Of a stretch of DNA of 64,000 bases, positions 1-62,248 are shown in pieces. The notes beneath the pieces are model-generated. The model searched no databases. It had not been told where the DNA came from and worked only from the letters and a program-made list of their open reading frames with translations. This stretch comes from an uncultured Verrucomicrobiae bacterium (GTDB lineage Bacteria > Verrucomicrobiota > Verrucomicrobiia > Limisphaerales > JAFGQR01): contig CAWBHS010000057.1 in the NCBI GenBank assembly GCA_963788655.1, forward strand, positions 256,001-320,000. The letters are read 5' to 3'. Made by a program: the position numbers and the translations under genes. Numbering within the stretch: the stretch's first letter is position 1; every line of letters starts with the position of its first letter.

Positions 1-1139
1 TCCGCCTCGTTGTCCAGACAGCCGACGCTCAGACGGATGCCGCTCTTGTAGTTGTACCAACAGGTATTGTGGCGAATCAACGTCCGGCTGGTTTCGAAGA
101 TGCCAATCCCCGAATCCCCATTGTGCAAGCAGGCGTTCTGCTCGACCAGCGAATCGTTGCAACTGCGGTGCAGCATGATGCCGTTGCCACCGTTGTTCCA
201 CGAGGTGTTGTAGCGGATGGTCAGGTGGTCGCAGCGCTGGGAAGCGATGATGCCGTGCGTGCCGTTGTGGTGAACATTGTTGTTCTCGATCACCAGCAAA
301 TCCGAATCGTCGTGCGGGTCGAACCCGTAGGCCACATTGTGATCCACCTCATTATCCATCATGCGCATGGCATAGGCGCCAAAACTGTACATGCCGAAAT
401 AATTATGATGAATTCGGCTGCGGAGGATGTCGCCGTAAACCTCGACCAAGTCGTACAGGTCGGGTTGCAGCGTGGGATCCCCAAGGACTTTCCAAACCAT
501 CCCGTACGCCTCCGCCCCATGAAAACCCAAGTAGCCAATGTCGCTATCAATGACATCCATTCGCGATTCGTGGGGGGTGACCCCGTCCGGATCGAGACTG
601 GACCGCACCCGGATAAACGCGCGGCCGAAAGCGTAGTATTCCTGGTCGGGACCATTCGCGGCATCGTCCCACGACGTGATCGCAGTGCTCCGGATGTCGA
701 TGGTGCCATAGTCGGCGGTGACGACGACGTAACTATTTTCGGCCGCCGAGTTGTTGCTTTGCAGCCGCAACTCGTTGACGTTGCCCCCGATCTTGGTGCC
801 GTGCAGTAACAACGTGGCGCCATTCTCCAACTGGAGATTGGCCCGCAGATGCCAGACCGCCGGCGCAACCTGGACCAGCGGCGCCTTGGGCAGGGCTGCT
901 TTCACCTCACTCAACGTCGCCGCGCCGGGCCCCGTGATGTAGATGCGGTAGGAGGAACTGGACCAGCGGAACGTCGTTCCAAAGGCTGAGGGCGACCAGA
1001 ACAGCAGCAACAGCAACGGCAGCCACGCGGCCCGACCCCGCGCCGCGGGCCATCGCGGACGGTCGCGGTCGCGCTCGCCCACGCTGAAGTCTCGCCGCAC
1101 GGCTGCGGGTCTCCACCGAGTGGTTAACAACGTTTGCAT
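1..1139 (-). CDS. algG: AlgG-like mannuronan C5-epimerase / right-handed beta-helix protein (3' end runs off the window)
   Basis: Translated by hand, absent from the ORF track: ATG at 1139, hydrophobic signal stretch WLPLLLLLFWSPSAFG, AlgG-type motif YGFDPHDDS (~303-330), beta-helix repeats (HHNGTHGIIASQRC, NNGGNGIMLHRSC). Open to position 1; lies downstream of algD. Confidence 0.75.
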   Translation of the reverse strand, partial: MQTLLTTRWRPAAVRRDFSVGERDRDRPRWPAARGRAAWLPLLLLLFWSPSAFGTTFRWSSSSYRIYITGPGAATLSEVKAALPKAPLVQVAPAVWHLRANLQLENGATLLLHGTKIGGNVNELRLQSNNSAAENSYVVVTADYGTIDIRSTAITSWDDAANGPDQEYYAFGRAFIRVRSSLDPDGVTPHESRMDVIDSDIGYLGFHGAEAYGMVWKVLGDPTLQPDLYDLVEVYGDILRSRIHHNYFGMYSFGAYAMRMMDNEVDHNVAYGFDPHDDSDLLVIENNNVHHNGTHGIIASQRCDHLTIRYNTSWNNGGNGIMLHRSCNDSLVEQNACLHNGDSGIGIFETSRTLIRHNTCWYNYKSGIRLSVGCLDNEA

Positions 1140-1186
1140 AGGATTACTGCTGATCCGGCACCGTTTGTCTCGTTCCTGAAACCGTC

Positions 1187-2599
1187 TTAAGCGGCGCCCA
1201 CGGTCTCCGTCTCTTCTACGTCCACTTGGGCCTCGGGCTTTAAGCGTTTTTTCGCTTCGATGATCCGTTTCACGAGATGGTTCTTGCCCCGCAGATCGGC
1301 GATGATCGGTCGTTTGCCCATCTGGACGACCCGGTCCAGCAGTGCTTCGTCGTCCCGAGTAATCACCAAAACCTCAGAGTGTTCGATTAATTCATCCAAG
1401 CTGTTCACCGTGCGGCTCGACAGATGGGGGATGTGTTTTTCGATGTAATCCCGGTTGGTGCCCGCGATCATCGAAGTTGCAATCGCCGAATCATGGATCT
1501 TCACGTCGTACCCCTTGCCAATGAGGTTTTCGGCAATCAGCACAATCGGGCTTTCGCGCAAGTCGTCGGTGCCTGATTTGAACGCCAGGCCATTCAGGCC
1601 GATCCGCAAGTGACCGTTCTTCGGCACCGCGTCCATCGCTCGCTTCAAGTGGGCTTCATTGCTGGCCAGGACGCCCCGCATCAGCGGCAGGTCCACGCCA
1701 TTACGGTTGCCGACCTGCACGAGCATGCGCAAGTCCTTGGGCAGGCAAGAACCGCCGAAGGGAAGTCCGGGCCGTAAATACGCCGGTGAAACGTTCAGCT
1801 TGCGATCCATCACGAAGTGCTTCATCAAGGAATGGCCGTCCACGGAAAGCGCCGAACAGAGCGAGCCGACTTCGTTCGCAAAAGCCACCTTGAGGGCATG
1901 AAAGGCGTTGCAGACCGCTTTCAAGGTTTCGGCCTCGCGCAGCGGAATCCACACCAGCGGATCCTTGATGCCGCCAAACAGCGCTTCAATGGTCTCCCGG
2001 TTGTCGTCCGGTTGGCCGCTCGCACTGCCGACGACAATAAAGGGCGGATCATTGTAATCCGCGATGGCCGAGCCTTCGCGCAGGAATTCCGGCACCACCA
2101 CCAGGTCGCTCTCTTGGAACAGCGCCGACGCCGGGCTGTTCGGGTGCAGCGCCGGGAAGACGACGTTCTCCGCCGTGCCCGCCGGCACCGTGCTGCGCAG
2201 GATCACCACATGCCGATCCAGCTTCTCTGGCAGGGCGGAACCAATCAGTCTGGCCGTTTGCTTGAGCGCCACCAAATCAAGGCTGCCGTCGGGACCGGTC
2301 GGCGTCCCCACACAGATAATGGAGGCGTCGGTCGTCAAGACCGCCGCCCGGCCATTGGTGGTCGCGGTCAGCCGCCCTTGGCGGTGGGCCTCGGCAATCA
2401 ATTCATCGATGCCGGTTTCCACGACGGTAGGCCGTCCGGAAGCGAGTTTTTCCACTTTGTCAGGGAGGACATCTACTCCAATGACCTCATGCCCGTTTTT
2501 GGCCAGGCACGCCGCCGTCACGCAACCCACGTAGCCCAGACCGAATATGCTGACTTTCATAATGTTTCTTTCCATTACCTTTCGTTCGTTAGTGTTCAT
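1187..2599 (-). CDS. algD: GDP-mannose 6-dehydrogenase
   Basis: MKVSIFGLGYVG Rossmann motif, ICVGTP, PEFLREG, catalytic FGGSCLPKD, FKSGTDDLRESP and YIEKHIPHLS, all AlgD-like. Confidence 0.85.
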   Translation of the reverse strand: MNTNERKVMERNIMKVSIFGLGYVGCVTAACLAKNGHEVIGVDVLPDKVEKLASGRPTVVETGIDELIAEAHRQGRLTATTNGRAAVLTTDASIICVGTPTGPDGSLDLVALKQTARLIGSALPEKLDRHVVILRSTVPAGTAENVVFPALHPNSPASALFQESDLVVVPEFLREGSAIADYNDPPFIVVGSASGQPDDNRETIEALFGGIKDPLVWIPLREAETLKAVCNAFHALKVAFANEVGSLCSALSVDGHSLMKHFVMDRKLNVSPAYLRPGLPFGGSCLPKDLRMLVQVGNRNGVDLPLMRGVLASNEAHLKRAMDAVPKNGHLRIGLNGLAFKSGTDDLRESPIVLIAENLIGKGYDVKIHDSAIATSMIAGTNRDYIEKHIPHLSSRTVNSLDELIEHSEVLVITRDDEALLDRVVQMGKRPIIADLRGKNHLVKRIIEAKKRLKPEAQVDVEETETVGAA

Positions 2600-2712
2600 C
2601 TATTTCCCCGTCTATGTATAATTAACCGGTTGGGATTACCTACCATGTTGCGGGGACAGCCACCATGGGAACAACTACTTCGGCCCATCACTGTATTTCT
2701 ACGATCACCCCC

Positions 2713-3963
2713 CTAGGGGATTTCCCGAACCGTCGCGGTTTCGTTTCTGGCCGGCGTGGCCGAGCGGGTCCAGGAAAACAGGCCGCTCAGAAATGTGCCC
2801 ACGCTGGCTTCATCACCGTCGGCGTCCCGTCGGATGCCCACCACGGCCGAAAGCCCCAAGGGCAAGTTTGAGTTGTCACCGTCCAATGCGATATAAACCG
2901 GTACCATGGCGTTCTTGCGCACCAGGGTGTGTAAGGTGGTCGGAACGGGGGCAAGCTGCAGGTGTTTGTCGGTCATGACTCCGATGGCTTGCACTCGGCC
3001 GGACAAATTGTGTTTCGGAAATGCATCCAGCGAGATGTCCGCCAGACTGCCCACTCGGATCTCGTTCAGATCCCGTTCGTCCACCCAGGCTTCCACCCAG
3101 GGACGTCCGATCGCCATGGCGATCATCGGTTCGCCCACGCGGGCTGAACCGCCCACCTCGACGATCCGTTCCAACACCCGGCCCTCCGCCGGCGCCCGGA
3201 TGACGGTGGACGCCAAGTCGGCCTCGGCCGCCTTGACTTTAGCGCGCGCCACTTCGACTTGCGACTCGAGCACGGCCAACCGGGCTTCGCGCACGCGCAA
3301 GCCATCGAGTTCGGTCGTTGCGGTTTGATAGCTGGACTCCGCCGCATCCACTGCTCCCTTGGCGGATTTGACCAACGCCAGCGATTGGTTGCGCTGGCCC
3401 GTGATCTGGTCCATCTCGCTTTGCGCGGCAATACCGGTCTTGATCAGTTGCGCGGCGCGGCCGTAATCTTTCTCCAGCCGTTCCAAGTTGGACTTCTCTG
3501 CTTCATAAGCGCCGATTGCTGCTTTGCGCATCCCGTTCAGCCGGGCGATGTCCAACGTTAGCCGGCGGCGCTCCTGTTCGATGGCCATTTTCTCGACGGC
3601 TAATTCGGTGCTCATGCGCGCGAACTCCGCCCGCTCTTCCGCCACCGTCGCCGCCAGATGATCGTCTTCCAAACGCAACAACACGTCGCCCTTGGCTACG
3701 CGCTGGCCGATATCGACCTCCACGCTCTCGACGCGGCCTTCGAGCCGGGCGCCAATGCGAGTGACGACGCCGTTGACGACGGCTTCGCCCAGGACCAGGT
3801 GTTCATAGCGGTAACAGCCCCAAGGAATCCCAATGCCCAAAGCGGCGATGGTCAGCAAACCGACCAGGCAAATGACAGTGACGCGAATCACCGAGCGGGC
3901 CGACCGCTTGGAAGGAGTTGGAGTTTGGGTGGGGGGGGATGATTTATCGTTTGGATGACTCAT
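2713..3963 (-). CDS. HlyD/EmrA-family membrane fusion protein in the Alg44 position, no PilZ domain
   Basis: N-terminal TM helix, lipoyl half-motifs (GRVESVEVDIGQRVAKGDVLLRL, IRAPAEGRV), long coiled coil; overlaps the alg8 stop by 20 bp. Confidence 0.8.
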   Translation of the reverse strand: MSHPNDKSSPPTQTPTPSKRSARSVIRVTVICLVGLLTIAALGIGIPWGCYRYEHLVLGEAVVNGVVTRIGARLEGRVESVEVDIGQRVAKGDVLLRLEDDHLAATVAEERAEFARMSTELAVEKMAIEQERRRLTLDIARLNGMRKAAIGAYEAEKSNLERLEKDYGRAAQLIKTGIAAQSEMDQITGQRNQSLALVKSAKGAVDAAESSYQTATTELDGLRVREARLAVLESQVEVARAKVKAAEADLASTVIRAPAEGRVLERIVEVGGSARVGEPMIAMAIGRPWVEAWVDERDLNEIRVGSLADISLDAFPKHNLSGRVQAIGVMTDKHLQLAPVPTTLHTLVRKNAMVPVYIALDGDNSNLPLGLSAVVGIRRDADGDEASVGTFLSGLFSWTRSATPARNETATVREIP

Positions 3964-6055
3964 GCAGCAGGTGCCTCAAAGATTTTGCCTGATCACTATT
4001 GGCATCCTTGCGCACTGGCGGCATCGCCTTCCGTAGCTTCAACATCAAACTGTCCGTCGGCAGTTTGAAACTCTGTTGATAAAGCTCGGTGCGAGTCGAA
4101 GCGTTCTCGTACGCGAGCTGATAATTTGTCAGGGAACGGAAAATTAGTTGTTGCAAATCCGTGGGGGGCTCCGACAACGGATCCGGCCGTCTCTCCGCCG
4201 CGGCTTCCAATAGTGTCGGGACCAACGGCTCTGGAAGCCGCCTCGTGGTCACTGGTTCCCGGTCAGGAGTCGCAATGGTTTGGCCAAACTCAGCCGGATC
4301 GTTCGTCATCGAATGCGACGTGCCGACCTCAAAGGTGGTGGTCCGGGCACGGGGATTAAGAAACAGCCGCGCTTCCCGAAACACGGGCAGAAAACCGACA
4401 AAGACCCCGACGACGATTAGCAATGCCGTGGTGGTGAAAAGATACAAGTAATGGGCGAAGCCGGTACGCAAGCCATAAAAGGCGGAGCCGCGAACGGCGT
4501 TCAGCTTGCGCGCCCCGCGATTGAGCCACGATTGCTTGGCCGGATGGAACAGGACCCAAAACTTGGTCAAGGCGGTCGCCCAGTCCGACACGATTTGCAA
4601 GGGCACGTAATAGGCCGAGAACCGTCGGCCCTGCCGCCAGGCGACGGCGGCATGGGTCAACCGCGAGGTCAACACCCAAAGCAAGTAACCCGCGGCAACT
4701 TCGTAGCGGCCAGCGCAGAGCGCCAGCAGCAACAGGCAAGGTCCCACGAGCACGGTGCCCATCGCCAAGCGCTGGTCCACCAGACTCCACCAGGGGAACA
4801 GCCCCAGTTTCCGAGGCCCAAGTTTGATGGCCCGCCAACTGTGGCGCACACTGTTGCCGGACCACCGCCGGATGTTGGCCAGCGCGCGTTGCACCGCGCT
4901 ACCCTGGACCACTTCAATCGTGGTCACCATGGCGTCCGGCACATACAGCATCCGTTGTTGGTGGGCCGCCATCCAAAACCAAGTGGTCTTGTCATCGCCG
5001 CTCAACATTTCGAACGAGCCCCAGAGCCAATTGCTGATGAGATCTTGCCGAACCAGATTTCTAAAACTCGCATCCTTGATCGCGGTCGCGCGAAACACCG
5101 AAAGCCGGCCGGTCAGACACAGCAGCCGGCCCGACAGCGCCACGGAACACATCGTGCGGTGCCGCAAACCGAACCGGAGTGATATCCATTCCGCAAACCA
5201 GGTCGGACCTTTGACCCAGCCGTTCTCGTTGGTGGTCACGGCGCCGACGGCCGGCTGCAGCCGGAACAGCGGCAGGACCTTGGCCAGCATGCCGGGTTGC
5301 AGCAAGGTGTCGGCATCCATGAAGACCACCACCCCGTCGTCATGCGGATTGCCCTGGGCGATCTCTTCCATGCCTTTGCCCAAGGCTTCGCGTTTGCCAT
5401 TTTCGCCACGCCGAAGAATCAGTTCGGGCGGCCACAAGTCATTTGCCTGGTCCTCCGGTGACGTGCAGCAACGAGCAAAAACTTCTTGGATGTTTTGATC
5501 ATCTTCATCGCATCCAGTCACCACGACCACTTTGGGCCGGCATTGCAGGCCGGTCACGGCGCGCAATTCGCGAAAGACCGATTCAAACACCACGGCGGTG
5601 ATCCAAGGTTTCTCATGATAAGTTGTGGCCAGGATGATCACCTCCGGCACGGGCCCGAATTGCTGCACGGCTCGGGCTGCCGCGCGACGCAGCCGGGGAT
5701 AGGTGAAATAGCGGTATAAAATCGCCCGCACGTTTTGGATGAGGAACCAACTCCACCGCCAACAGGCAATGCCGCCAACCGTAAGCAGGACTTCAATTCG
5801 TTGGAGCATCCAGAAGTGGACGTCGCCCACGATGCTGATGAGGGTCATCATCAGCCAAGCCAGCAGCGCCACCAGCACCAGTTGACTGGTCCACGGCGCA
5901 CCATTTCGGCACCGCCCCACTTCCGCGGAAACCGCATTGCGGAATTCCCCGGGTTGTGGCCCGGTGGTGCCAAAAAACTCCCTCCGATTGGGGGCAAACG
6001 ATAAAACACCGCATGCGTGATCCACATCGGGGGGATATCCTTTTCCCTTGTTCAC
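3944..6055 (-). CDS. alg8: Alg8-like processive GT2 polysaccharide (mannuronan) synthase
   Basis: DADT (DxD), LRFGLRHRTMCSVALS, TGRLSVFRA, SGDDK, IRRW and LVDQR motifs as in Alg8; several TM helices. Start uncertain. Confidence 0.8.
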   Translation of the reverse strand: MNKGKGYPPDVDHACGVLSFAPNRREFFGTTGPQPGEFRNAVSAEVGRCRNGAPWTSQLVLVALLAWLMMTLISIVGDVHFWMLQRIEVLLTVGGIACWRWSWFLIQNVRAILYRYFTYPRLRRAAARAVQQFGPVPEVIILATTYHEKPWITAVVFESVFRELRAVTGLQCRPKVVVVTGCDEDDQNIQEVFARCCTSPEDQANDLWPPELILRRGENGKREALGKGMEEIAQGNPHDDGVVVFMDADTLLQPGMLAKVLPLFRLQPAVGAVTTNENGWVKGPTWFAEWISLRFGLRHRTMCSVALSGRLLCLTGRLSVFRATAIKDASFRNLVRQDLISNWLWGSFEMLSGDDKTTWFWMAAHQQRMLYVPDAMVTTIEVVQGSAVQRALANIRRWSGNSVRHSWRAIKLGPRKLGLFPWWSLVDQRLAMGTVLVGPCLLLLALCAGRYEVAAGYLLWVLTSRLTHAAVAWRQGRRFSAYYVPLQIVSDWATALTKFWVLFHPAKQSWLNRGARKLNAVRGSAFYGLRTGFAHYLYLFTTTALLIVVGVFVGFLPVFREARLFLNPRARTTTFEVGTSHSMTNDPAEFGQTIATPDREPVTTRRLPEPLVPTLLEAAAERRPDPLSEPPTDLQQLIFRSLTNYQLAYENASTRTELYQQSFKLPTDSLMLKLRKAMPPVRKDANSDQAKSLRHLLHESSKR

Positions 6056-15265: not shown

Positions 15266-16455
15266 ATGTATGGATCATTGCAACCTCACCTGAAGCAGCA
15301 GTTGGAGCAAATTCAACAGGCCGGCACGTTCAAAAACGAGCGCGTTATCATGACGCCGCAGGGCGCCACCATCCGGGTGGCGGACGGCCAACCGGTGCTG
15401 AATTTGTGCGCCAACAATTACCTCGGCCTGGCGCAACATCCCGACGGTGACCGCCGCCGCGCATGCCGCGCTGGACCAATGGGGCTACGGTCTGGCGTCG
15501 GTGCGTTTCATCTGCGGCACCCAAGGCGTCCACAAACAACTCGAAACGAAGCTGAGCGAGTTCCTCGGCACGGACGACACCATTCTTTACAGCTCCTGTT
15601 TCGATGCCAACGGTGGATTGTTCGAAACCCTGCTTGGCCCCGAGGACGCAATCATTTCCGACGAACTCAATCACGCGAGCATCATCGACGGCGTCCGTTT
15701 GTGCAAAGCGCAGCGGTTGCGTTACCGCAACAACGACATGGCCGACCTCGAAGCCCGACTGCGCGAAGCCAGTCAGGCCCGGTTCAAAATGATCGCCACC
15801 GACGGCGTGTTTTCCATGGACGGTTACATTGCCAACCTGCCGGCGATTTGCGACCTGGCGGAGCAAGCATGGCGCCCTGGTCATGGTGGACGACTCGCAC
15901 GCCGTCGGCTTCATGGGCCAACGCGGCCGGGGCACGCCCGAGCATCACGGGGTCATGGGCCGCGTGGACATCATCACCGGGACGCTGGGCAAGGCGTTGG
16001 GCGGTGCCAGCGGCGGTTACACCAGCGGCCGCAAGGAAATCATCGACTTCCTGCGTCAACGTTCGCGGCCGTATTTGTTTTCGAACACCCTCTGCCCCAC
16101 CATTGCCGGCGCCTCGTTGAAAGTGCTGGACCTGTTGACCGAATCCACGGCCCTGCGCGATCAACTCGAGGCCAACACCAAGTTCTTCCGCGCCGAGATG
16201 ACCAGTCGCGGCTTTCAAATCCTGCCCGGCGAACACCCCATTGTGCCGGTCATGCTGGGCGACGCGGCGCTCGCAACCCGCTTCGCCGATGCCATGCTTG
16301 CCAAAGGTGTTTACGTGATTGGCTTCAGTTACCCGGTCGTTCCCAAAGACAAAGCCCGAATTCGCACGCAAATTTCCGCCGCGCATTCCCGCGAAGACCT
16401 CGAGTTGGCGCTTCGGGCTTTCAGTGAAGTTAAAAGCGAATTGGGCTTGGCGTGA
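15266..16455 (+). CDS. kbl: Glycine C-acetyltransferase (2-amino-3-ketobutyrate CoA ligase); frameshifts near 15445 and 15865
   Basis: [40 protein letters not shown] and [11 protein letters not shown] spread over three frames. Confidence 0.92.
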
Positions 16456-16473: not shown

Positions 16474-17853
16474 ATGGCCATCTCCGTCCTGGACATGTTC
16501 ACCATCGGCATTGGCCCGAGCAGTTCGCACACGGTGGGGCCAATGCGGGCGGCGCGGCGGTTCGCGCAGGAAGTTGAAGCCACCGGTTCGTTGCCGCAGG
16601 TGAGCACGTTGAAACGCACCTATACGGTTCGCTGGCGTTGACCGGCAAGGGCCATGGCTCCGACCGGGCCCTGATGCTCGGTCTCGAAGGCGAAACCCCC
16701 GAGGACGTGTCATTGGAGCGCATCCCGGCCATCATCGAGCGCATCCACACCGAACACCGTCTCCAGCTTGGCGGCACGCACGAGGTCAAATTTGATGACG
16801 CCACCGATCTTCGGTTCCATCGCACGCAACGGCTCCCGTTGCATTCGAACGGAATTCGATTTTTCGCGCGCACTTCAGACGGAGGCACTCTTCTGGGCCG
16901 CACCTACTACAGCATTGGCGGCGGCTTTGTGTTGAGCGAAGCGGAGGCCAACGATCCCAACCTGCGCCGCGTTCCGGATTCTCTGCCGTTTCCCTACCAA
17001 TGCGGCGATGATCTGCTGCGAATGGCGCGCGAGTCCGGCTTGAGCGTCAGTGAGATGACCTTGCGCAATGAATCCGCCTGGCGGCCGGAAGCCGAAACCC
17101 GCGCCGCGCTGTTGCGCGTGTGGCGGGCCATGCATGAGATGCGTCGAACGCGGCTGCCGGGCTGAAGGAACATTGCCGGGACCGATGCACGTCACCCGTC
17201 GCGCGCCGCGGCTGTTTCGCGAACTGACGGAACGTCCCGAGGTCAACCTGCGCGATCCGCTGGCGGTGATTGATTGGGTCAGCATGTGGGCCATGGCGGT
17301 CAACGAAGAGAACGCCACCGGCGGACGCGTCGTCACCGCGCCGACCAACGGCGCCGCAGGCATCCTGCCGGCCGTGTTGCATTACCTGGTGCAGATTCGC
17401 GGTGCGAACGAGGACCGCATTGTGCGGTTCCTGCTGACCGCCGGGGCGATTGGGATATCTGTTCAAGCTGAACGCCTCCATTTCCGGCGCCGAAGTCGGC
17501 TGTCAGGGCGAAGTGGGTGTGGCCTGTTCCATGGCGGCGGCAGCGTTGACGGAAGCCTTGGGCGGCACCGTGCTCCAGGTTGAAAATGCCGCCGAGATCG
17601 GCATGGAACATCACCTCGGCCTGACTTGCGATCCCATCGGCGGGCTGGTGCAAATCCCGTGCATCGAGCGGAACGCCGTGGGCGCCGATGAAAGCCATCA
17701 GCGCCGCGCGCCTGGCGCTTGGCCGGCGACGGCACGCATCGCGTATCGCTCGACAAGGTCATCGCCACCATGCGGCAGACCGGTGCGGACATGCGGACCA
17801 AATACAAGGAGACTTCCCGCGGCGGTCTCGCCGTGAACGTGGTCGAATGTTGA
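16474..17853 (+). CDS. sdaA: L-serine ammonia-lyase (Fe-S type), several frameshifts
   Basis: [74 protein letters not shown]. Confidence 0.92.
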
Positions 17854-21198: not shown

Positions 21199-21754
21199 AA
21201 ACAGATTCCTTTCTTTTCGGGTTCAACCCTTTTCCGACGATTTCGCAGCGGTTACTTGCGGAATCTAACCGGTGGCAAGCGGCTTGCAACCTAAATGGAG
21301 AAGAAGGAATCACGGTCTTTGCAGTGTGAAAAACGACCCATCCCTGCGTTCACGTATCACTCGACCGCATCGCAGAACGGTAAACTGCATGATGCGGCTT
21401 CCATCCCCGGCAGCCTGGACATGGCGAACGGTTTGCCGAAGGCACTTCGGCGATACAGCAGGTTGATAATCTGCGCTACGGAAAAGTGTAGCCGAACCTG
21501 CCGTCTCATCAGTACGTGTTGAGGGGGGTGAACGTTCGAACACTCCGTTCCGGCAAGCTGCCGGCAGCACGTTGCGTCTGCCACCGGGAACTGGGTTGGG
21601 GCCCCCACGTTGCCGGCCCGGCAAAACCCCAGCGGATTTCGGGAACCGGACTTCGGTCGGACGTTGGATTTCGGATTTCTCACTTCGGATTTTACTGCCA
21701 CATTTGCCCTTTTCTTTCGCCCTTGGCTCCCTGATGATCACCGCGCTTTTCGCT

Positions 21755-23171
21755 ATGACATTGAAGCTGTTTAACACATTAACCCGCTCCGTCGAAGAAT
21801 TCGTGCCGCTGGACCCGGAAGGTAAAAAAGTCGGCATGTATTGCTGCGGCCCGACGGTGTATGACTTCGCGCATATCGGTAATTTCCGGACGTTTGTTTT
21901 TGCCGACCTGGTGCGCCGTTACCTCGAGTTCCGCGGCTTCAAGGTCAATCACGTGATGAACATCACGGACGTGGAAGACAAGATCATTCGCCGCGTCAGC
22001 GAGACCGGCAAGCCGCTCCCGGAATACACTGCCCAATACGAAAAGGCCTTCCTCGAAGACCTGCAGACCCTGGGTTGTTTGCGGCCCCACCAAATGCCGC
22101 GAGCCACCGAGCACATCGGGGAGATCATTGGCCTGATCAAGAAACTGGTCGATCGCGGCATTGCTTACCAGGCGCCGGACGGATCGGTGTATTTCAGCAT
22201 CGAGAAATACCAGGGCTGCGGCTGCCGTTATGGGCAATTGGTCAAGTTGAATTTCGAGCAAATGCGTCCCGGCGAACGCGTCGCGAGCGACGAATATAGC
22301 AAGGAATCCCTGGCCGATTTCGCGCTCTGGAAAGCGCGCGTGCCCGAGGACGGCGCGGTGTTCTGGCCCAGTCCGTGGGGCGAGGGCCGTCCCGGCTGGC
22401 ACATCGAGTGCAGCGCCATGAGCATGAAAATGCTTGGGCCGAGCTTCGACCTGCACCTGGGCGGCGAGGATCTGGCGTTTCCGCATCACGAAGACGAAAT
22501 CGCCCAAAGCGAAGGCGCCGGCGTGCAACCGCCGGGCCAGGGTTTCGTCAAGTATTGGCTGCACGGCGCCCACTTGCTGGTGAACGGCAAGAAAATGAGC
22601 CAAGTCGCTCGGCAACTTCTTTACGCTGCGCGACCTGGTGGACAAAGGATTCGCGGGCCGCGAAATTCGCTTCCTCATGCTCTCGGCCCATTACCGGGAA
22701 TCCTTCAATTTCACCGAGGATGGTCTCCAGGGAGCCCGCTCGTCATTGGCACGTTTGGATGAGTGCCTGGCCAAACTCACCGAGTTGGCCGGCAAGAAAA
22801 AGGCGAACGCGGATGCGCAATTGCTCGAACGCTTCACTGAAGCTCTGGACAACGATCTCAATGTCTCGGCCGGTTGGGGTGCCGTGTTCGAATGGGTTCG
22901 TGACATGAACCGCGCCCAAGCGGAGGAGCAATTGTCACCCGAGCAAGCCGCGGCCGGACTGGCGGCTTGGGAGAAAATCGACAAGGTGTTTGGGTTGGGG
23001 GAAAAGGGGGGCGAGGAAGCACCACCGGAATTCACGGACCTGTTGGCGCAGCGTCAGGCCGCGCGCCAAGCCAAAGACTTTGCGCGCGCCGATGCCTTGC
23101 GCGACGAATTAAAAGCCAAAGGCTGGATCATCGATGACACCCCCAAAGGGCCGCGGTTGAAGAAAGCGTAG
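21755..23171 (+). CDS. cysS: Cysteinyl-tRNA synthetase; frameshift near 22600
   Basis: YCCGPTVY, HIGN, DFALWK, GRPGWHIECSAM, FPHHEDE; KMSKSLGN split by one extra C. Confidence 0.97.
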
Positions 23172-32866: not shown

Positions 32867-35800
32867 ATGCCGCGCAAGAAAACGATCAATCCTGCTGCTC
32901 CGAAGGCGGGCGATTCCATCTCGTCGATCAAATATCCCGCCAAGCGGAAGAACATCCCGCCGGCGGGGCTCGAAGCGCAGGGCGTGCTTCAGGAGGCCCC
33001 TCGCCTTCGCTACGAATACAACCCGCATCTGCCGCCGGAGCTTCGCTCGGCCACGGATGCGAGGGAGGCGGACAAGCTGCCGGAGCTTCTGGCCATTGCG
33101 CGAAAACGCGCACTGTCAGCCGACGAGGCGAAGGTACTCGCGGACGCCCTGCGCCGCCACGAGCCGTGGCTGGAGTGGAGCGGGAAGCGCGAGAAACCGT
33201 GGTTCGAGGTCGATCCGGTGGCCCTGCACATGCACGAGCGCATGTCCACCCAGGCCATCCTGCGCGTGTTGGCGCGGGAGGATGTCGAGCGCGATCTCTT
33301 TGCCGATCCGCAGCACGATTATGCCAAGGCCGTGCAGTTCTACCAGCACGACATGGACTGGGCGAACCGCATGATCCTCGGCGACTCGCTCCAGGTCATG
33401 GCCAGCCTCGCCCGGCGCGAAGACCTCGCGGGCAAGGTGCAGATGATCTACATCGACCCGCCCTACGGCATCAAGTTCGCCTCGAACTTCCAGCCGCAGC
33501 TCGGCCAGCGCGACGTAAAGGACCGCGAGCAGGACCTCACCCGCGAGCCGGAGATGGTCAAAGCCTACCGCGACACCTGGACGCTCGGCATCCACTCCTA
33601 CCTCGCCTATCTGCGCGACCGGCTGCAAATGGCCCGCGAACTCCTCGCCGACTCCGGCAGCATCTTCGTGCAGATCAGCGATGAAAATCTGCATCGCGTC
33701 CGGTGCGTGATGGATGAGGTGTTTGGGGCGGGGAATTTCGTTGCCACCGTCATCGTTGCAGAAAACGGGTGCACCAAAAAGGAGGCACGACTGGAGCCAA
33801 TCAATGACTATCTCCTGTGGTATGCGCACGTGACATCGCGAAGGTTAAGACACGAACCGTCTACACTTCACGAAGAAGCGGATGAAGGCGAAGAAGGTAC
33901 GGTTCAATTCAAATCTTTTCACCAGATGGTGAGGCACGACGACTAAGCGATGGCGACGTGGCTGACGCTGCGGAATTGCGATCAAAGGGATCGGCGTCTG
34001 CATTTGCAAGCGATCCGCTGACTTCTGGCGGCGAATTTCGCACCCAACTATTCGCGATCAGTTTCAAGGACCAGATCTTGGAATCCGCCGCGGAATAACT
34101 CATGGAAGACTCAATCGAGGAATCTATGACGGCGTGCCTTGCGTCAGATCGGGTTGATGGCGGGCAAGGGCAGATTCGCTATCGGAAGTTCGTTGACGAT
34201 TATCGCAGCGCAGTGCCGTTGACGAATTTGTGGACCGATGCAGCGCGGAAGCACTGACAAGATTTACGTCGTCCAAACGACTCCAAAGGTGGTTCAGCGC
34301 TGCATCTTGATGACCACCGACCCCGGCGACCTCGTGCTGGACCCGACGTGCGGGAGCGGGACGACGGCGTATGTGGCCGAGCAGTGGGGCCGGCGCTGGA
34401 TCACCTGCGATTCCAGCCGGGTGGCGCTGGCGCTGGCCAAGCACCGGCTGTTGACGGCGAAGTTCGATTACCACCAGCTTCGCCCGCTGAGCGCGGAGGA
34501 CGTGGCGCGCAATCCGCACGGGACGTGGCTGAGCGGGGACACCCTCGCCGCGCCGGACGAAAAGCGGCAGAGGACTGCCGCACTCCAAGACGCTTCGCGA
34601 AGTTCAGGGGCGTCAGATGGTGCGCCAGCTTTTGGACTGCGCCAGTCCTCTGGCGCTTTTTCCACGGGCAAATTCACCTTCAAGTGCAAGACGGTGCCGC
34701 ACATCACGCTCAAGAGCATCGCCCGCAACACCTCGCTTGATCCCATCTTCGCCAAACACGAGCCGATCCTCGCGGATAAGCTGACCCAACTGAACCGCGA
34801 AGTCGCCAAGGTCGGCGCGGCGCTCAAGGAGAAGCTGGTGGAGAAGCTGATCCACAAGCATCGCGAATCCGGCGCGAACGCCGTGACGGACGCCGACACC
34901 CGCCGCTGGCTGCTGCCGGACACGCAGCCGGTCTTGATCCGCTCGTTCCCCGCGAAGAAGCCATTCAAGGGCGTGACGCCGAAGCAGGCGGAGGCTTATC
35001 GCGCCGCGATTCCCAAAGGCGGCTGGCAGGAATGGGAGATCCCCTTTGACACCGATGCCAACTGGCCGAAGCCCTTGCAGGAAGCATTGACCACCTACCG
35101 CGACGCGTGGCGGGCCAAGATGGACGAGGTGAACGCCTGCATCTCCGCCAACGCCGAGATGGAAGAACTGGTGGACAAGCCTGAGCCAGTGAAGGGCGTG
35201 GTGCGGGTGAGCGGCCCGTTCTCGATGGAAGGCGTCATCTCCGTGGAAGACGGCCCCGACACGCCGATCGGCGGAGCGCCGGACGAACTGGAGACTTTCG
35301 ACGGCGACGCGGCGGTGCAGAACGCCGAGGCGCATCTCGATACGATCATCCGCCTGCTCAAAGCGAGCGGCGTAGATTTCCCCGGCAACAAGAACATGAA
35401 GTTCAGCCGGCTCGATCCGCTGACGGATGCCGCCATGATCCATGCCGAAGGTGAGTGGGACACTGCGGCGTTTGGAGTCCCGCCTTCAGGCGGCTCGGGC
35501 GAACCGGCTAAAGCCGGGACTCCGAACGAGAGTTCCCGCCGCGTGGCCGTGAGCATCGGGCCGGCGGTCGGCAACTTCAGCGCGATGCAGGTGGAGGAAA
35601 CGCTGCACACCGCGGGACGCCGGAGCTATGACGACATCGTTTTCGCGGGCTTCGGCTTCGATGCCACCGCGCAGGCGATCATCGATGCCGATCCGAATCC
35701 GCGGGTGCGCTGCCACATGGCGCTCATCCGCCCGGACGTGGCGATGGGCGACCTGCTCAAGACGCAGCCTGGGAGCCAGCTTTTCACCGTCTTCAGCGCC

Positions 35801-36187
35801 CCGCGCGTGAAAGGCCCGACGAAGCAGGCGGACGGCGAGTTCACCGTCGAGGTCGAGGGGATGGATGTCTATGACCCGGTGAGCAACACGCTTTTCCCGA
35901 CGGACAAGGAGCGGATCGCCGCGTGGTTCCTCGATGCGGATTACGACGGACGGACGTTCTGCATCTGCCAGGCGTTTTTCCCGGACAAGAGCAAGTGGTC
36001 CAAGCTGGCCAAGGCGCTCGGCGATGCCGACGTGATAGACGAAGGTGCGTTCGAGGCGTTGAGCGGCTTGACGAGCCTGCCCTTCCCGCGCCCCGAGCGG
36101 CGGGGCAAAGGCGAGACCTGGCGCGTGGCGGTGAAGGTGATAGATCCGCGCGGCAACGAAGGTTTGCGGGTGCTGACGATCAACTAA
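32867..36187 (+). CDS. mod: Type III RM DNA methyltransferase (Mod); central region frameshifted (~33760-34250)
   Basis: ILGDSL, YIDPPYG (motif IV), VQISDEN, then VLDPTCGSGTT (motif I), i.e. beta-class order; C-terminal VAVKVIDPRGNE. Confidence 0.88.
34561..34659. repeat. REP-like inverted pair lying in-frame inside mod
   Basis: aaagcggcagaggactgccgcactccaa / ttggactgcgccagtcctctggcgcttt, 25 of 28 positions complementary. Confidence 0.8.
35470..35527. repeat. Second REP-like inverted pair lying in-frame inside mod
   Basis: gtttggagtcccgccttcaggcgg is the exact reverse complement of intergenic 49186-49209. Confidence 0.85.
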
Positions 36188-36225
36188 CGGCATGTTGTCG
36201 TGCCGCCAACCAAATGGATTGATTT

Positions 36226-37407
36226 ATGAAACTGAAATTTCGCAGAAATGCTCACACGTTGAAGGCGGAGAATTTCGGCCCGATCAAGTCGGGCCGGGTG
36301 GAATTTGGCGACCTCACCATCCTGGTCGGCCCGCAGGCCACCGGCAAAAGCATCTTCCTCCAACTGCTCAAGTTGCTCGTTGACATCCGGCACGTAAAGT
36401 ATGAGTTCAAGCGTGCCGGCATTGACTGGCAAAACAAGTTCGAGCTTTTTCTGGATGTCTATTTTGGGGAAGGCATGAAGAACTTGAAGCAACCGGGAAC
36501 GCATGTGGAATTCGGTGGCGCGCCGGAAAATCTGGAATCTCTAGTCGCCGATACCAAGGCGGCGAAGGGCGAATCCATGTTCTTCATCCCCGCCCAGCGC
36601 GTGCTCACCCTGCGCGATGGCTGGCCCCAGGCCTTCACGTATTACGACCCGGGCGTTCCCTTCACCGTGCGCGAGTTCAGCGAAGAACTGCGCCTTTTGA
36701 TGACGGATCTGTCGCCCACCGAAACCTTGTTCCCCGTGCCGCGCCGGTTGAAACAGGAATTCCGCGACCTGCTCCAGGCTCATGTCTTCCCGGGTTTCAA
36801 CCTCAAGATTGACCCAGCGCGAACACAGAAGCGCCTGGTGCTGACGGCGGGTGAAAACGGAGCGGCCTTGCCGTTCATGGTCTGGTCTGCCGGTCAGCGT
36901 GAATTCGTTCCGCTGCTGTTGGGCTTGTATCATCTGCTCACCCCGGCAGGATCGCCCCGGCGGCAGGGGGTGAAATGGGTTGTGCTCGAGGAGCTGGAGA
37001 TGGGCCTGCATCCGCGGGCCATCAGCATCGTCATGCTGATGGTTTTTGAATTGGTTTCACGTGGTTACCGCGTCTGCATCTCCACCCATTCGCCGCAGGT
37101 GTTGGATGCCGTGTGGGCCTTGAAGCACTTGCACGAGTGCCGGGCCAAGCCTTCCGCCTTGCTCGAAGTCTTCGACGCCCCCGCGACTCAGGGTATGCAA
37201 AGCCTCGCGGAGAAAGTGATGAAGAAGCGCTCCAAAGTTTATTACTTCGACCGCGAAGGTGAAACCATCCGCGACATTTCCGACTTGAATCCTGATAAAG
37301 AAGAAAGCGGCGAAAGCGGTTGGGGCGGGCTTTCCGAGTTCAGCGGCCGGGCCAGCGAAGCGGTCGCAAAAGCGGTTGCAAACGCAGGGAGAAAGGCCCA
37401 GTCGTGA
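36226..37407 (+). CDS. Soluble ABC-type ATPase (AAA_15/AAA_21-like), defence-associated
   Basis: ENFGPIK, Walker A GPQATGKS, signature WSAGQ, Walker B LEELEMGLHP, H-loop STHSP; no TM partner nearby. Confidence 0.85.
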   Translation: MKLKFRRNAHTLKAENFGPIKSGRVEFGDLTILVGPQATGKSIFLQLLKLLVDIRHVKYEFKRAGIDWQNKFELFLDVYFGEGMKNLKQPGTHVEFGGAPENLESLVADTKAAKGESMFFIPAQRVLTLRDGWPQAFTYYDPGVPFTVREFSEELRLLMTDLSPTETLFPVPRRLKQEFRDLLQAHVFPGFNLKIDPARTQKRLVLTAGENGAALPFMVWSAGQREFVPLLLGLYHLLTPAGSPRRQGVKWVVLEELEMGLHPRAISIVMLMVFELVSRGYRVCISTHSPQVLDAVWALKHLHECRAKPSALLEVFDAPATQGMQSLAEKVMKKRSKVYYFDREGETIRDISDLNPDKEESGESGWGGLSEFSGRASEAVAKAVANAGRKAQS

Positions 37408-37871
37408 GTTTCAAAGATGCGGTGGAGTCCACTCCACATCTTGAATGGTGTGCTGGCCTGCAAGCGTTGCGGCGAGAGGACAAGCCACACATTGACCCAG
37501 AAGACCCGCGGCGCTTAAGCGGTAGTGTAGATGTTGATACGGCCTGGCTACAGCTTGATCCGCATGGTAATCGCTGGGATTTTGCCATCGCTTATCAGCA
37601 TGCCAACCGTGCCGAAGAATTCGTTTACTGGGTGGAGCTCCACACCGCGAGCGACTCGCAGGTGAAGAAGGTGATTGCGAAGGCCAACTGGTTGTTGAAC
37701 TGGCTGAAAACCAGCGGCCAACGCCTCAACGCGTTTGAACGCGAAATCCTTTGGGTCGCCAGCGGTGCCACCACGTTCACGCTCACCTCGTTCCAGAAGA
37801 AGCAAATGGCCTTGGCGGGACTGCAACATCGCGGCAAGGTGCTCCGCATCCCCAACCAATATCCCGACTGA
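37404..37871 (+). CDS. 155-aa putative PD-(D/E)xK-fold nuclease, partner of the ATPase
   Basis: GTGA overlap with the ATPase stop; RWDFAIAY...YWVELH resembles a D...ExH variant active site. Confidence 0.55.
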   Translation: MSFKDAVESTPHLEWCAGLQALRREDKPHIDPEDPRRLSGSVDVDTAWLQLDPHGNRWDFAIAYQHANRAEEFVYWVELHTASDSQVKKVIAKANWLLNWLKTSGQRLNAFEREILWVASGATTFTLTSFQKKQMALAGLQHRGKVLRIPNQYPD

Positions 37872-37883
37872 GCGAAACAGCGT

Positions 37884-40800
37884 ATGCCCGAAATCCAGAT
37901 TCCCATTCAGCCAGTCGAGAACCCGATTCTTTGCTCGCCCTACAAGGAGCCGGATCAACACTGGCTTTACGACACCAAGACGGGCATTCCCACGAAGACG
38001 CCCGGTCGCCGGCCCGCGAGTTACTGGTTCAAGACCGAACGCACCGGCAGCGCCCAAATGTCGTTGCTCGCCGAAGAAGAACGGGACGACCTGCCGCTGG
38101 TGAACGCGCTCCGCGAAGACGTGCGCCGTTGGCGGGGCTCGAATTGGGAGAACGCCAGCGAAACGACGAAGAAACTGCTGCGCCATTGGTGGCGCGAAGA
38201 TCGGGGACGACGGTTGTTCTTCTGCCAGGTGGAGGCCGTGGAGACGATTATTTATCTTCGGGAGATTCTGGCCCTTGGCAAAAAGCCCCGCTGGACGCCA
38301 AAGCTGACGCTCGATGATTTCAACACGCTCAGCCATGGGAAGAACCCGCGCCCGGAGGAATGGATGGCGCGAGTAGCGCAGCATCCGAAGTTGGCCGACA
38401 TTCCAAATGAGGCAGGAGCAAAGGCGATCCACCGTTACGCCTGCAAGATGGCCACGGGCAGCGGCAAGACGGTGGTGATGGCGATGCTCATCTCGTGGGC
38501 GTTTTGCAATCGGGGCACGAAGCCGGGCGATCCGCGTTTTCCGCGTCGGGCGCTGGTGCTATGCCCGAACCTCACGATCAAGGAACGGCTGAACGTGCTG
38601 CGCCCCGGCGACCCGAACAACTACTACGAGATGTTCGACATCGTGCCGTCATCGCTGCGTCCCGAACTGGCCAAGGGCAAGGTGCTCGTGACCAACTGGC
38701 ATTGGCTGGCACCCGAAGCGGAGGTTCAAAACGTGGGCGGTGCGCCCATCGTGCGGCTGGGCGCGGAGAGCGCCGAGGCTTTTGCACGTAATCGCTTGGG
38801 CGATCTGTGGGACGAGGAACCGCTGATGGTCCTGAACGATGAAGGCCATCATGCCTACCGACCCGCACCCGTGGACGAGGATGTTAAACTTTCCGCCGAG
38901 GAAAAAGCCGACCGCGAAGAAGCGACGGTGTGGGTGAGTGGGCTGGACAAGATCAATGCCGCCTGCGGCATCGGCATTTGCGTGGATATGTCGGCCACGC
39001 CGTTCTACCTGCATGGCAGCGGTTACCCGGAAGGTTCGCCGTTCCCGTGGATCGTCAGCGACTTCTCGCTGGTGGACGCCATCGAGAGCGGCATCACAAA
39101 GATTCCGCGTCTCCCGGCGATTGATAACACGGGACGGCCCGACCCGAAGTATTTCAAATTGTGGGATCACATTGTCCGCGACTTACGCGCTGGGGAGAAA
39201 CTTACCGGTGGTAAGCCCAAGCCTGCGGTGGTCTATCGCAAGGCCGAGGATGCGTTGTTGACGCTGGCAGGCGAGTGGAAACAGAAACTCGAACAGGTCA
39301 CCTCCTCCGCACCCGGACAGGATCGCACTCCGCCGGTGATGATCGTAGTCTGTGACAACACGGATATAGCCAAAGAGTTTTACCGCGCCATCTCCGGGGA
39401 AGAACTCATTGAGGCAGACGTTCCCGATGAAGAGGATGACGATGAGGATGAAACCCCAAAGCGACGGAAGAAAAAGGCCAAAGCCAAGAAACACTACGGC
39501 GCTGGGCTGCCCGGTTTCTCCGAGTTGTGGAATCGTGAGGGAGCAGAAGTAACGCTGCGCATTGACTCCAAGCTGCTCGCTGCCGCCGAGAGCGAAGACC
39601 CAAACACCACGAAGAAAGAAGCGGCGGAGGAATTGCGGAAGATTGTCTCGACCGTGGGCCGCGTCGGCGAAGCCGGCGAGCACATCCGCTGCGTTGTCAG
39701 CGTGAACATGCTCAGTGAAGGCTGGGACGCAAACAACGTGACGCATATTCTCGGCCTCCGCGCATTTCACAGCCAGTTGCTTTGCGAGCAAGTGGTGGGG
39801 CGGGGCTTGCGTCGTATAGATTACACGCCCGACCCCGTAACGGGATTGTTGACCGCTGAGTACGTGGACATTTTCGGCGTGCCGTTTTCCCTCATTCCTT
39901 TCAAGGGCCGCGAGCCAGGCGGAGGCCCGCCTCCGGAAGACCGCCCCAAGCACGAAGTCATGGCGTTACCCGAGCGGAAGCAATTCGAGATTCGATTTCC
40001 CGTGGTCGAAGGCTACGTGGTTTCACTCCAGCGCAACCTGGTGACCGCCGATTTGGGCAAAGTTGAGCGCACGAAGCTTGATCCGTGGACAACGCCAACG
40101 GATGCCTTCGTTCGTCCGCAGGTCGGTTATCAGATCGGCCATGCCAGCGCCCACGGCGGCTTCGGTTTTGAACTGGTGAATCGCCAGGAATATTACGACT
40201 CAGTTCATCCGCAGACCATCGAGTTTGAGATAACGCGGGAAATTGTCCGTGCGCTTACCGAGGCGGCGCATCCCGGCAAGGAGCGTCTGCGACGCGAGAG
40301 TCGCAGCGCGTTGTTCCCACAGGTGCTCCGAATCGTGCAGGGTTATATGCGGGAGCGCGTGGAGTTCAATGGCTTGAATCCTTGTGAGGTAGGCTTGCAG
40401 ACGTATGCCCAGCACATCATCGGCCGGTTGATTGCCGCGATCACGCCGGACGACAGCAAAGGCGAAGCGCCGTTGCTGCCACGGTTGAACCGCTACAAAC
40501 CGATTGAAAGCACTGAGAAGGTTCACTTCAAGACAGTGAAGCCGGTGCAAGTCACGGGAGCCAGCCACCTGAACTTTGTCGCGTGCGACACCAACTCATG
40601 GGAGCAAGCGGCCACATTCCAACTCGAAAAGCTGGCGAAAGAGGGTGTGGTCTATTGCTACGCCCGTAACGACCGTCTGGAGTTTAACATTCCTTACGAG
40701 CTTTACGGGAATCCCCAAGTGTATGAACCGGACTTCATTGTCCGACTTCGCAACTCTGTGAGTGTGGTGACCGAAATCAAAGGCAAGTCATACGAAGACA

Positions 40801-61800: not shown

Positions 61801-62248
61801 CGGCAAACGGAGCCGCCTCGCCGTAAGATATATCCACCCGCTGGGCCGGATAATGGAACTGGCTGGCGAGGGTCACGCCATCCGGCTGGACCAATCCCAG
61901 GTACCCTCCGCCGGCGTTCAGACGAAAGTTGGTGTGCAATTCCTCGCCCGCGACTGCGCGATCCTTGCCGGAAGCGAAAATGATGAGGAATTCGTCCGGC
62001 AGCAGTGTGACCTGGGGAAGCCGCCATTTCCGCAGTAGCCCGGAATCATCCGTCAAGAACCATCCGTCCAGGCTCACCGTCGCGGTGCCGGGATTGTGCA
62101 GCTCAATCCAATCGGAATGGTCGCCATCGGTGTCCGTGAGCGTCCGGGCATTGGACGCCATGAACTCACTGATGACCGCCTGACCGGGCGCATTGCTCGC
62201 GCCCAGACCGAGCGCGAGCATCCACACGCTGGTCCATCGCCATCTCAT
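55882..62248 (-). CDS. ~2100-aa surface protein: LTD, LamG-like, Fn3-associated, CotH kinase, LTDs, Ig domains; one extra base near 60945
   Basis: ISEFMASN/DWIELHN and ITEIMYHP/EFLELKN (LTD); IRGGQSR, LNGQYWG, NNWYA, HDAE (CotH); YQW.FNG (Ig); RFYRV end. Removing one G turns NK*L into NKYF, as in the paralogous repeats. Confidence 0.82.

Follow-up and report, generated by a model that had tools for sequence, protein, structure and literature searches.

A candidate PilZ-free alginate operon with a brown-algal-type C5-epimerase in Verrucomicrobiota and other bacteria

Does bacterial alginate synthesis extend beyond Azotobacter and Pseudomonas, of which it is still described as a trait in the accessible text of a 2024 paper (PMC11468063)? 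The question is raised by the left end of a 64,000-nucleotide stretch of DNA from an uncultured Verrucomicrobiae bacterium (the window, G000:C57:256001-320000, where G000 is the source genome and C57 its contig; other G and L identifiers denote genomes and loci of relatives). Here, four co-oriented open reading frames (ORFs) on the minus strand encode a family 2 glycosyltransferase (GT2), a membrane fusion protein (MFP), a nucleotide-sugar dehydrogenase and a beta-helix protein. A sequence-only reading had reported Alg8, AlgD and DPHD motifs in four such genes of a probable verrucomicrobial lineage; the motifs are indeed present, from 6055 to 1 on the minus strand. From established gene content, synteny, family placement, motifs and predicted adaptor fold, we conclude that the locus probably represents a synthase-dependent, unacetylated, PilZ-independent alginate operon with GT2-MFP-TolC export, distinct from the Pseudomonas/Azotobacter type, its activities, product and export route being predicted ones.

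The GT2 (703 amino acids; 3944..6055, minus strand) is a putative mannuronan synthase with a Glyco_tranf_2_3 Pfam domain. It is about 32-35% identical (186-264 bits) to Alg8 of Pseudomonas-type operons, for which our reference was a set of algD-8-44-K-E-G-X-L-I-J-F-A operons taken from metagenomes; AlgG from one of these scores 993 against the AlgG-model cut-off of 700. The catalytic motifs of Alg8-family synthases are all kept: D247-x-D249, TTNE, LTGR, GDDK353-356, E381 and RW397-398. E381 aligns with E322 of Alg8, an essential residue according to the accessible part of PMC4436075, which also links Alg8 His323 to dependence on cyclic di-GMP (c-di-GMP). The latter position is Val in the window protein, but is altered in other non-Pseudomonas rows as well, and we gave it no weight. 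The best model for any other kind of GT2, NodC, reached only 32 bits, no PDB GT2 structure was matched, and the last ~130 residues are variable and carry no PilZ motif. A 44-row tree of the Alg8 family, built with no non-Alg8 outgroup, places the protein in a subclade of verrucomicrobial, planctomycete and myxobacterial sequences with 100/100 support, and many of the 120 homologues listed are automatically named Alg8 or mannuronan synthase by JGI/NCBI. By sequence, then, this GT2 belongs to the Alg8 family, as first proposed.

The dehydrogenase (470 amino acids; 1187..2599, minus strand) has UDPG_MGDP_dh N-terminal, central and C-terminal domains; its ORF opens at 2599, with an ATG at 2560 as the likelier start. 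Its best solved relative is the GDP-mannose 6-dehydrogenase (GMD) of P. aeruginosa (1mfz, 374 bits), followed by a UDP-glucose dehydrogenase (UGD) at 230 bits. In a 57-row tree (8 of 65 rows were removed as near-duplicate or partial, and one outgroup gene is present twice, as L257 and L264), the protein groups inside an AlgD clade (100/99) that excludes 12 rows of other NDP-sugar dehydrogenases, and within that clade it again belongs to a verrucomicrobial, planctomycete and myxobacterial subclade (100/99). It matches 26 of 51 AlgD-diagnostic columns versus 11 of 56 columns diagnostic of UGD-like enzymes; the former include H217 and an L-N-x-S stretch ahead of the catalytic Cys285, which corresponds to Cys268 of GMD. 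The protein falls in the AlgD/GMD clade, in agreement with the earlier preference for AlgD over Ugd, and is predicted to be specific for GDP-mannose. A second AlgD-clade dehydrogenase of G000 (L282:7468-8853, on contig C64) is encoded in an exosortase/sugar-transferase exopolysaccharide (EPS) cluster.

The beta-helix gene (1..1139, minus strand) runs off the left edge of the window, which holds the N-terminal two-thirds of its product. The protein matches Beta_helix/NosD, has a signal-peptide-like N-terminus, and forms a right-handed beta-helix with a Tyr-x-x-DPHD catalytic site in the stretch AYGFDPHDDSD...HGIIASQRC; the DPHD codons lie at 309..320, preceded by the equivalent of AlgG Tyr314. 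Among 20 family members, which were picked for having the DPH motif, Tyr-x-x-DPH and the His-Gly after it hardly vary; the roles of the catalytic His and Tyr314 in AlgG are covered in the accessible text of a review (PMC4444821). The earlier algG label survives in part: the DPHD beta-helix is there, and AlgG is the best solved relative (E 8e-18). We rejected assignment to the Pseudomonas-type AlgG itself, since the protein scores 105 bits against the curated cut-off of 700 on the AlgG equivalog model (NF038177), and Pseudomonas-type AlgG forms a separate clade (100/100) in both trees that included it.

Where Pseudomonas has HGIIISREV, window-type epimerases have HGIIAS[QK]RC. The Arg of Pseudomonas AlgG, presumably the carboxylate-neutralising residue at position 345, is replaced by Gln in the window protein, is mostly Lys, Arg or Gln in its relatives and Lys in brown algae, and is followed by a near-invariant Arg. 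Five named representatives of brown-algal mannuronan C5-epimerases (ManC5-E) have HGIIASKRC, the same type of variant as the window family. Loss of the Arg need therefore not be disqualifying; the brown-algal variant can also be seen in the supplement of PMC11468063. By family, the beta-helix enzyme is a brown-algal-type ManC5 epimerase whose activity is predicted.

In the G000 assembly, the reading frame of the epimerase is interrupted by a stop 27 bases beyond the left edge of the window. The remaining 250 residues, its C-terminal third, are encoded in another frame (G000:C57:255237-256001) and share 48-57% identity with the C-termini of intact orthologues. These orthologues are single ORFs, many of ~620-650 residues. 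An assembly indel is the likelier cause of the break, because unrelated genes are broken too: of 38 genes checked against relatives, 5 were flagged as frame-broken, two of these on other contigs, and kbl within the window (named by eye) is split over three frames. Housekeeping-type genes at window positions 15266-16455, 16638-17580 and 21572-23168 (by eye kbl, serine dehydratase and Cys-tRNA ligase) look frame-split, which fits indel errors in this assembly.

Within the order, 16 of 301 genomes (G000 among them) carry the epimerase family, and 12 of these 16 carriers have two to four matches, some being gene halves, often in tandem arrays. Paralogues without DPHD (for example DLQD or DLHD) are found at L112:8227-12171, L114:2-2257, L116:4334-6736 and L121:3-2468; three stand next to copies that keep DPHD, in tandem, and one contains a pair of degenerate beta-helices. 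They are possibly non-catalytic binding or scaffold modules. Several epimerase paralogues share a W...L..W...F[YF]R C-terminal domain with the giant lyases and PL8 enzymes described below; the window epimerase lacks this domain, which may be a verrucomicrobial surface-sorting tail. In G353, a hybrid cluster (L132:7434-15540) brings together a brown-algal-type epimerase, an Alg8-like GT2 from a different clade, a PF05426 lyase and a PilZ-like plus MFP gene, which suggests that the epimerase moves between alginate systems. ESM Atlas feature look-alikes of window 3-1139 (scores 0.96-0.97) include an automatically named mannuronan C-5-epimerase cluster and Nitrososphaerota-dominated clusters, a lead for archaeal relatives. 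No AlgG motif was found in viral contigs.

The operon extends beyond the window to include the epimerase C-terminal third and a giant gene (C57:238711-255211, minus strand, ~5,500 residues). The giant gene encodes an N-terminal domain of polysaccharide lyase family 6 (PL6) followed by PKD, BACON and Ig repeats; an orthologue of ~5,300 residues is collinear with it along about 16.5 kb, through several changes of frame. Its PL6 domain scores 333 bits to the alginate lyase 7o84 versus 120 to chondroitinase B and keeps the Lys and Arg that we take to be catalytic. The algK/E/X/L/I/J/F genes that the sequence-only reading had suggested looking for in the adjacent DNA were not found there; the giant lyase stands in their place. 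Left of it in G000 come a PA14/lamin-tail (LTD)/CotH gene and further Ig/BACON giants, and several relatives likewise have a CotH/LTD/PA14 gene after the cluster. Runs of huge secreted-looking proteins, up to 4,600+ residues, occupy G000:C57:208,000-255,000 and window 55885-63999, with Ig, BACON, PA14, lamin-tail and CotH-kinase domains, those at the right end being judged by eye only.

To see how widely this arrangement is conserved, we compared related loci. Close GT2 orthologues (56-65% identity) in the same gene order occur in 5 of 60 related genomes, together with one distant PilZ-linked copy (G044) and one weak match; matches to the GT2 profile across the phylum were found in at least 3 of 401 genomes. 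G044 belongs to the same taxonomic order as G000, but its locus (L016:7358-12245) is arranged differently: a PilZ plus long MFP gene is accompanied by a PAS-GGDEF-EAL gene and a divergent Alg8-like gene, and neither algD nor an epimerase lies nearby. The gene set is syntenic in relatives from Verrucomicrobiota, Planctomycetota and Myxococcota. Relatives made up 572 of 600 Alg8 pattern matches, and many of the best 79 were cyanobacterial. The 25 best of the 79 named loci are titled Verrucomicrobiota (15, in keeping with the lineage first suggested), Myxococcota (3), Planctomycetota (2) or carry five other labels; the two of these five entered in trees group with verrucomicrobial rows. The remaining 54 are mostly cyanobacterial and alphaproteobacterial, at 33-41%. 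The 25 closest loci hold the MFP (22, adjacent to the GT2), AlgD (18), the epimerase (14), PL6 (6), PL7 (5), parts of a fusion of phosphomannose isomerase (PMI) and phosphomannomutase (PMM) (4) and PilZ (0); many of these contigs are short, kin are not independent and some loci are duplicates, and the three loci without an adjacent MFP end at the GT2. Alg8-like genes outside Pseudomonas are thus not rare in themselves, and it is the gene set of the window that is distinctive. In L043-L096, mostly cyanobacteria, Alg8-like proteins of ~700 residues have a C-terminal extension, with a pectate-lyase-like beta-helix match in L072; several of these loci have an HlyD-type MFP neighbour and sometimes algD, possibly a further GT2-MFP uronan system. 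On plasmids, only alphaproteobacterial Alg8-like genes were found (14 records).

Three unrelated alginate-lyase families occur in the clusters: PL6, PL7 (300 bits to AlgAT5) and a PF05426/PL5-like family. PF05426 lyases, F5/8-domain-PL7 proteins and LuxR regulators are further members. The PMI-PMM fusion, whole or in part, is present in 7 of 38 clustered loci. At L041:4114-8862, L015:11676-16442 and L030:8720-12727 it is a ~1,580-residue protein with a third domain of ~540 residues, which has no Pfam, NCBIfam or PDB match and shows only a nucleotidyltransferase-like G-x-G-T-R-like motif. We would guess that this domain is a GDP-mannose pyrophosphorylase, which would place the whole GDP-mannose pathway in one chain. 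In G000 itself, two further PL6 genes are present; a PMM gene that is unlinked and an AlgA-like gene make GDP-mannose supply plausible. One sediment metatranscriptome contains 19 contigs 85-99% alike over the epimerase, algD and GT2 genes, none covering the MFP or the epimerase frame break; without a DNA control, this is only a hint that close relatives live in that sediment. A promoter/terminator scan gave nothing above shuffled sequences.

How the polymer would leave the cell turns on the MFP (416 amino acids; 2713..3963, minus strand), whose ORF overlaps the GT2 stop by 20 nucleotides. It matches HlyD_D23/HlyD_3, contains no PilZ and has a single N-terminal transmembrane helix. Its structure model (predicted local distance difference test, pLDDT, 82) shows an alpha-hairpin of 75+71 residues, and the best fold match is EmrA (4tko, E 2e-24). 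The hairpin tip reads R169-x3-L173-x6-A180, and an R-x3-L-x6-S/A/T motif is found in 17 of 18 family members (R in 18 of 18, L in 17 of 18, S/A/T in 9/8/1). RLS-type tips bind TolC in MacA, AcrA and HlyD, with S-to-A tolerated, according to the accessible part of PMC3391258. Comparison with three Alg44 proteins gave no significant BLAST similarity, and, with the absence of PilZ and the EmrA-like fold, the identity of the MFP as Alg44 was rejected. A co-fold of GT2 and MFP scored 0.40 against 0.01 for the best control, with runs agreeing in at least 86% of contacts and partner pLDDT of at least 79; on this scale, 18 of 157 solved complexes passed with a score of 0.60 or less, as did 2 of 215 mismatches, the only mismatches to pass at all, so the model is weakly suggestive of a pairing.

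TolC-family genes lie within the cluster in four verrucomicrobial genomes (G015, G016, G028 and G103, representing three families, G016 and G103 being of the same genus) and in two of the three myxobacterial loci (L037 and L040). In the four genomes, the order past the giant lyase is TolC, then a xanthan-lyase-like PL8 with CBM96. The unlinked TolC of G000, at C91, ranks directly after the three in-operon copies among 29 matches. No ABC, MFS or RND pump recurs in the clusters, nor does Wzx/Wzy or a second glycosyltransferase. We therefore lean towards export by a GT2-MFP-TolC route.

Compared with the algD-8-44-K-E-G-X-L-I-J-F-A operon of Pseudomonas and Azotobacter, the window type shares an Alg8-family synthase, an AlgD-clade dehydrogenase, a DPHD beta-helix epimerase and a lyase in the cluster. 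Its order is different, as had been claimed, and proves to be alg8-MFP-algD-epimerase-lyase. In 54 related loci (790 kb), tblastn gave no match to alg44, K, E, X, I, J, F or A and one weak match to algL; an EmrA-type adaptor, often with TolC, is found instead, the epimerase belongs to a separate clade, and the lyases are PL6, PL7 or PL5-like, often huge and multi-domain. Across the G000 genome (86% complete), tblastn found no AlgE and only unlinked AlgK matches, probably generic repeats; PF16822 was not found, two unlinked MBOATs are present, and a hidden Markov model search for AlgF had no match but none in any control either. Because the Alg44, AlgK/E, acetylation and AlgG-equivalog tests all fail, this is not a member of the canonical system; most likely it combines alginate-like chemistry with Bgs/Xcs-like export.

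A survey of 1,733 genomes reported 64 alginate operons, mostly in Pseudomonas, including atypical ones without algKE (PMC7112194, accessible text). Like the deep-sea 'atypical' operons described there, the window type has lost outer-membrane and acetylation genes and is rearranged; unlike them, it has a TolC-type replacement, an algal-type epimerase and a PVC (Planctomycetes-Verrucomicrobia-Chlamydiae) or myxobacterial host, none of which that text names, although its table S3 and figure S5 could list further taxa. Closer parallels for export are rhizobial mixed-linkage glucan, BgsA-BgsB(HlyD)-TolC (PMC13438883), and cyanobacterial cellulose, XcsA-XcsB-TolC (PMC12430437), each described in the accessible text as a GT2 with an HlyD-type adaptor and a proposed TolC exit. 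Those systems make neutral glucans under c-di-GMP/PilZ control with tolC outside the operon, whereas the window type is predicted to make an acidic uronan, lacks PilZ, and has tolC in the cluster in six loci. The epimerase resembles brown-algal ManC5-E in YGFDPHDDSD...HGIIAS[KQ]RC, in modular extra domains and in multi-copy expansion, and differs in being bacterial and operon-encoded with an Alg8 synthase.

We propose the following scheme. The AlgD-clade enzyme would oxidise GDP-mannose to GDP-mannuronate, fed in some relatives by the fused PMI-PMM of the cluster. The GT2 would polymerise beta-1,4-mannuronan and move it over the inner membrane; that mannuronan is made we consider very likely. 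Beside the GT2, and in place of Alg44-AlgK-AlgE, the long-hairpin adaptor would dock on TolC to form a closed conduit to the outside, as modelled on the proposals for BgsA-BgsB-TolC and XcsAB-TolC. Since PilZ is absent, there would be no Alg44-type c-di-GMP switch, and control is probably transcriptional, given that LuxR-type response regulators are frequent neighbours. The exported DPHD enzyme would epimerise mannuronate to guluronate, most likely after export, like brown-algal ManC5-E and Azotobacter AlgE, because the conduit bypasses the periplasm; acetylation genes would then not be needed. A surface-scale PL6 (or PL7/PL5-like) lyase may trim or release the polymer. Epimerised polymannuronate, the product named by the sequence-only reading, is also the most likely one to judge from the gene set, epimerisation itself being likely.

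Some observations weigh against this scheme, and we take them here with the alternatives to it; one, the absence of algD from the G015 cluster, stands by itself. The best-surviving alternative is that alginate is made, but exits by an AlgE-like porin encoded elsewhere in the genome or by some other path, with the MFP only a co-polymerase or scaffold and TolC engaged in efflux or protein export. AlgE-family porins (PF13372) are present, unlinked, in all five genomes tested. In the mixed-linkage glucan precedent, an indirect role of TolC cannot be excluded by its authors (PMC13438883, accessible text). No TolC gene was found in the G000 cluster, with the contig read to C57:208,000, or in the examined flank of G076:C18, and 27 of 61 genomes carry the TolC subfamily, the operon being absent from most of these 27. 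Yet the adaptor keeps a full-length hairpin and an RLS-type tip, both without counterpart in Alg44, the clusters offer no recurrent pump to use it, and canonical AlgE matches nothing in G000. The giant proteins have signal-peptide-like N-termini, which type I secretion substrates do not carry. We regard this alternative as unlikely.

An improbable second alternative is that the product is unepimerised polymannuronate, the beta-helix protein being a lyase, a bifunctional enzyme, a binding scaffold or truly inactivated. The failed AlgG equivalog, the Gln at the Arg position, the frame breaks in both the epimerase and giant lyase genes of G000 and the loss of DPHD from several tandem paralogues would all suit it, as would AlgE7, in which the same site does both reactions (PMC4444821, accessible text). 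Against it, the Tyr, DPH and His-Gly residues are near-invariant among the members compared, the motif is common to brown-algal epimerases, and neighbouring genes already supply dedicated lyases; unrelated genes are frame-broken too, and orthologues are intact.

Still less probable is that the GT2 makes another mannuronate-containing polymer or heteropolymer, with the lyases as general-purpose degraders gathered nearby. The modest identity to Alg8 would allow this, four clusters include the xanthan-lyase-like PL8 (693 bits), by best match no alginate enzyme, and widespread cyanobacterial Alg8-like genes mostly have no algD or epimerase in the surrounding DNA examined. AlgD-clade membership is no proof of alginate, because the C64 copy, at 368 bits to canonical AlgD versus 338 for the window dehydrogenase, sits in an EPS cluster. 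However, there is one synthase with no recurrent Wzx/Wzy or second glycosyltransferase, and beta-1,4-mannuronan is the polymer indicated alike by the precursor enzyme, by the epimerase and by alginate lyases of three families. An assembly chimera or chance juxtaposition, which the bin statistics (86% complete, 5.6% contamination) and indel errors might suggest and which the sequence-only reading had named as a risk, is effectively refuted, because the order repeats in independent genomes (5 of 60 related ones, with the same gene set in other phyla) and composition is typical of G000 (GC 58-61% versus 59.6% genome-wide; tetranucleotide fit ranking 234 of 300 random genome windows).

Where does the epimerase stand relative to those of brown algae? 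According to the accessible text of PMC11468063, the bacteria with the most similar enzymes to the algal ones are Actinobacteria, at about 30% identity. Brown-algal GT2s are reported there not to be homologues of Alg8, and brown-algal GMD to be a distant relative of the bacterial enzymes; any brown-algal link would therefore concern the epimerase only. A profile built from 20 bacterial epimerases alone was run on 1.84 billion representatives and gave 663 matches at E <= 1e-30. The best 150 of the 663 include Hapterophycus, Laminaria digitata, Ectocarpus MEP19 and Discosporangium, plus a Scytosiphon cluster member. Against nine algal or alga-like domains, six of them named, the window epimerase has 37-44% identity over about 300-350 residues (177-222 bits), planctomycete L035 39-44% (204-271 bits) and an Egibacteraceae-cluster protein 39-47% (211-266 bits). 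Corresponding values are 32-36% for Pseudofrankia inefficax (145-193 bits) and Streptomyces (158-188 bits), and 27-34% over shorter stretches for Pseudomonas AlgG (65-99 bits). These comparisons show the algal and window epimerases to be of the same broad sequence family, closer than the published comparison.

In two of three trees, the algal sequences form a clade nested with rows from Verrucomicrobiota and Planctomycetota, at 97/79 (75 rows) and 93/94 (34 rows, LG+C20), the 42-row tree leaving its position without resolution; bacterial rows were chosen by likeness to the window family, a choice that favours such nesting. The immediate sister of the algal clade is a long-branched protein, P0190, whose C-terminus looks verrucomicrobial, and approximately unbiased (AU) tests do not reject brown algae plus actinobacteria as one clade (p 0.204 and p 0.136). 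A PVC donor of the brown-algal epimerase is thus suggested, with the chances about evenly balanced. The joint proposition, that PVC bacteria and myxobacteria have a third alginate route (PilZ-free Alg8, EmrA-type adaptor and TolC, with extracellular secreted epimerases) and that the PVC lineage, not the Streptomyces/Frankia type, was the source of the horizontally acquired algal ManC5-E, is more doubtful. A large clade of DPHD epimerase-like proteins (P0289-P0403) occurs in Streptomyces and other actinomycetes. The PL7-like lyase of the clusters was considered as a source of algal PL41 and dropped: none of the best 120 of 2,319 matches is named as algal, and among solved structures the top match is AlgAT5, an ordinary PL7.

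Elsewhere in the window, a DNA methylase, an ATPase and a restriction-helicase-like gene (by eye) in a row at 32867-41075 probably form a restriction-modification island.

In the literature searched, subscription papers lying outside its scope, we found no description of a window-type operon. Neither the accessible text of PMC11468063 nor that of preprint 10.1101/2024.02.19.579948 names a PVC epimerase, and the supplement of the former has 0 matches for Verrucomicrob-. The accessible main text of the epsSMASH preprint (10.64898/2025.12.21.693542) mentions alginate once, for Rhodobacter, and contains neither Verrucomicrobi- nor Myxococc-, though the rules it built across GTDB may already cover these clusters. 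PVC lyases are treated as degradative in the accessible part of PMC11890756. Single genes are already labelled Alg8 automatically, so the parts are known; it is the combination that was not found in the searchable literature.

The window family supplies relatives of the algal epimerases at about 37-47% identity, many in complete-looking biosynthetic clusters, and so reopens the donor question with testable sequences. A review names missing operon-level linkage as a weakness of the TolC-type model of polysaccharide export (PMC12430437, accessible text); these loci supply such linkage of GT2, adaptor and TolC. They also offer a candidate three-protein, acetylation-free and PilZ-free route to alginate, candidate alginate producers among uncultured environmental bacteria and, for alginate engineering, algal-type epimerases in bacterial, intron-free form.

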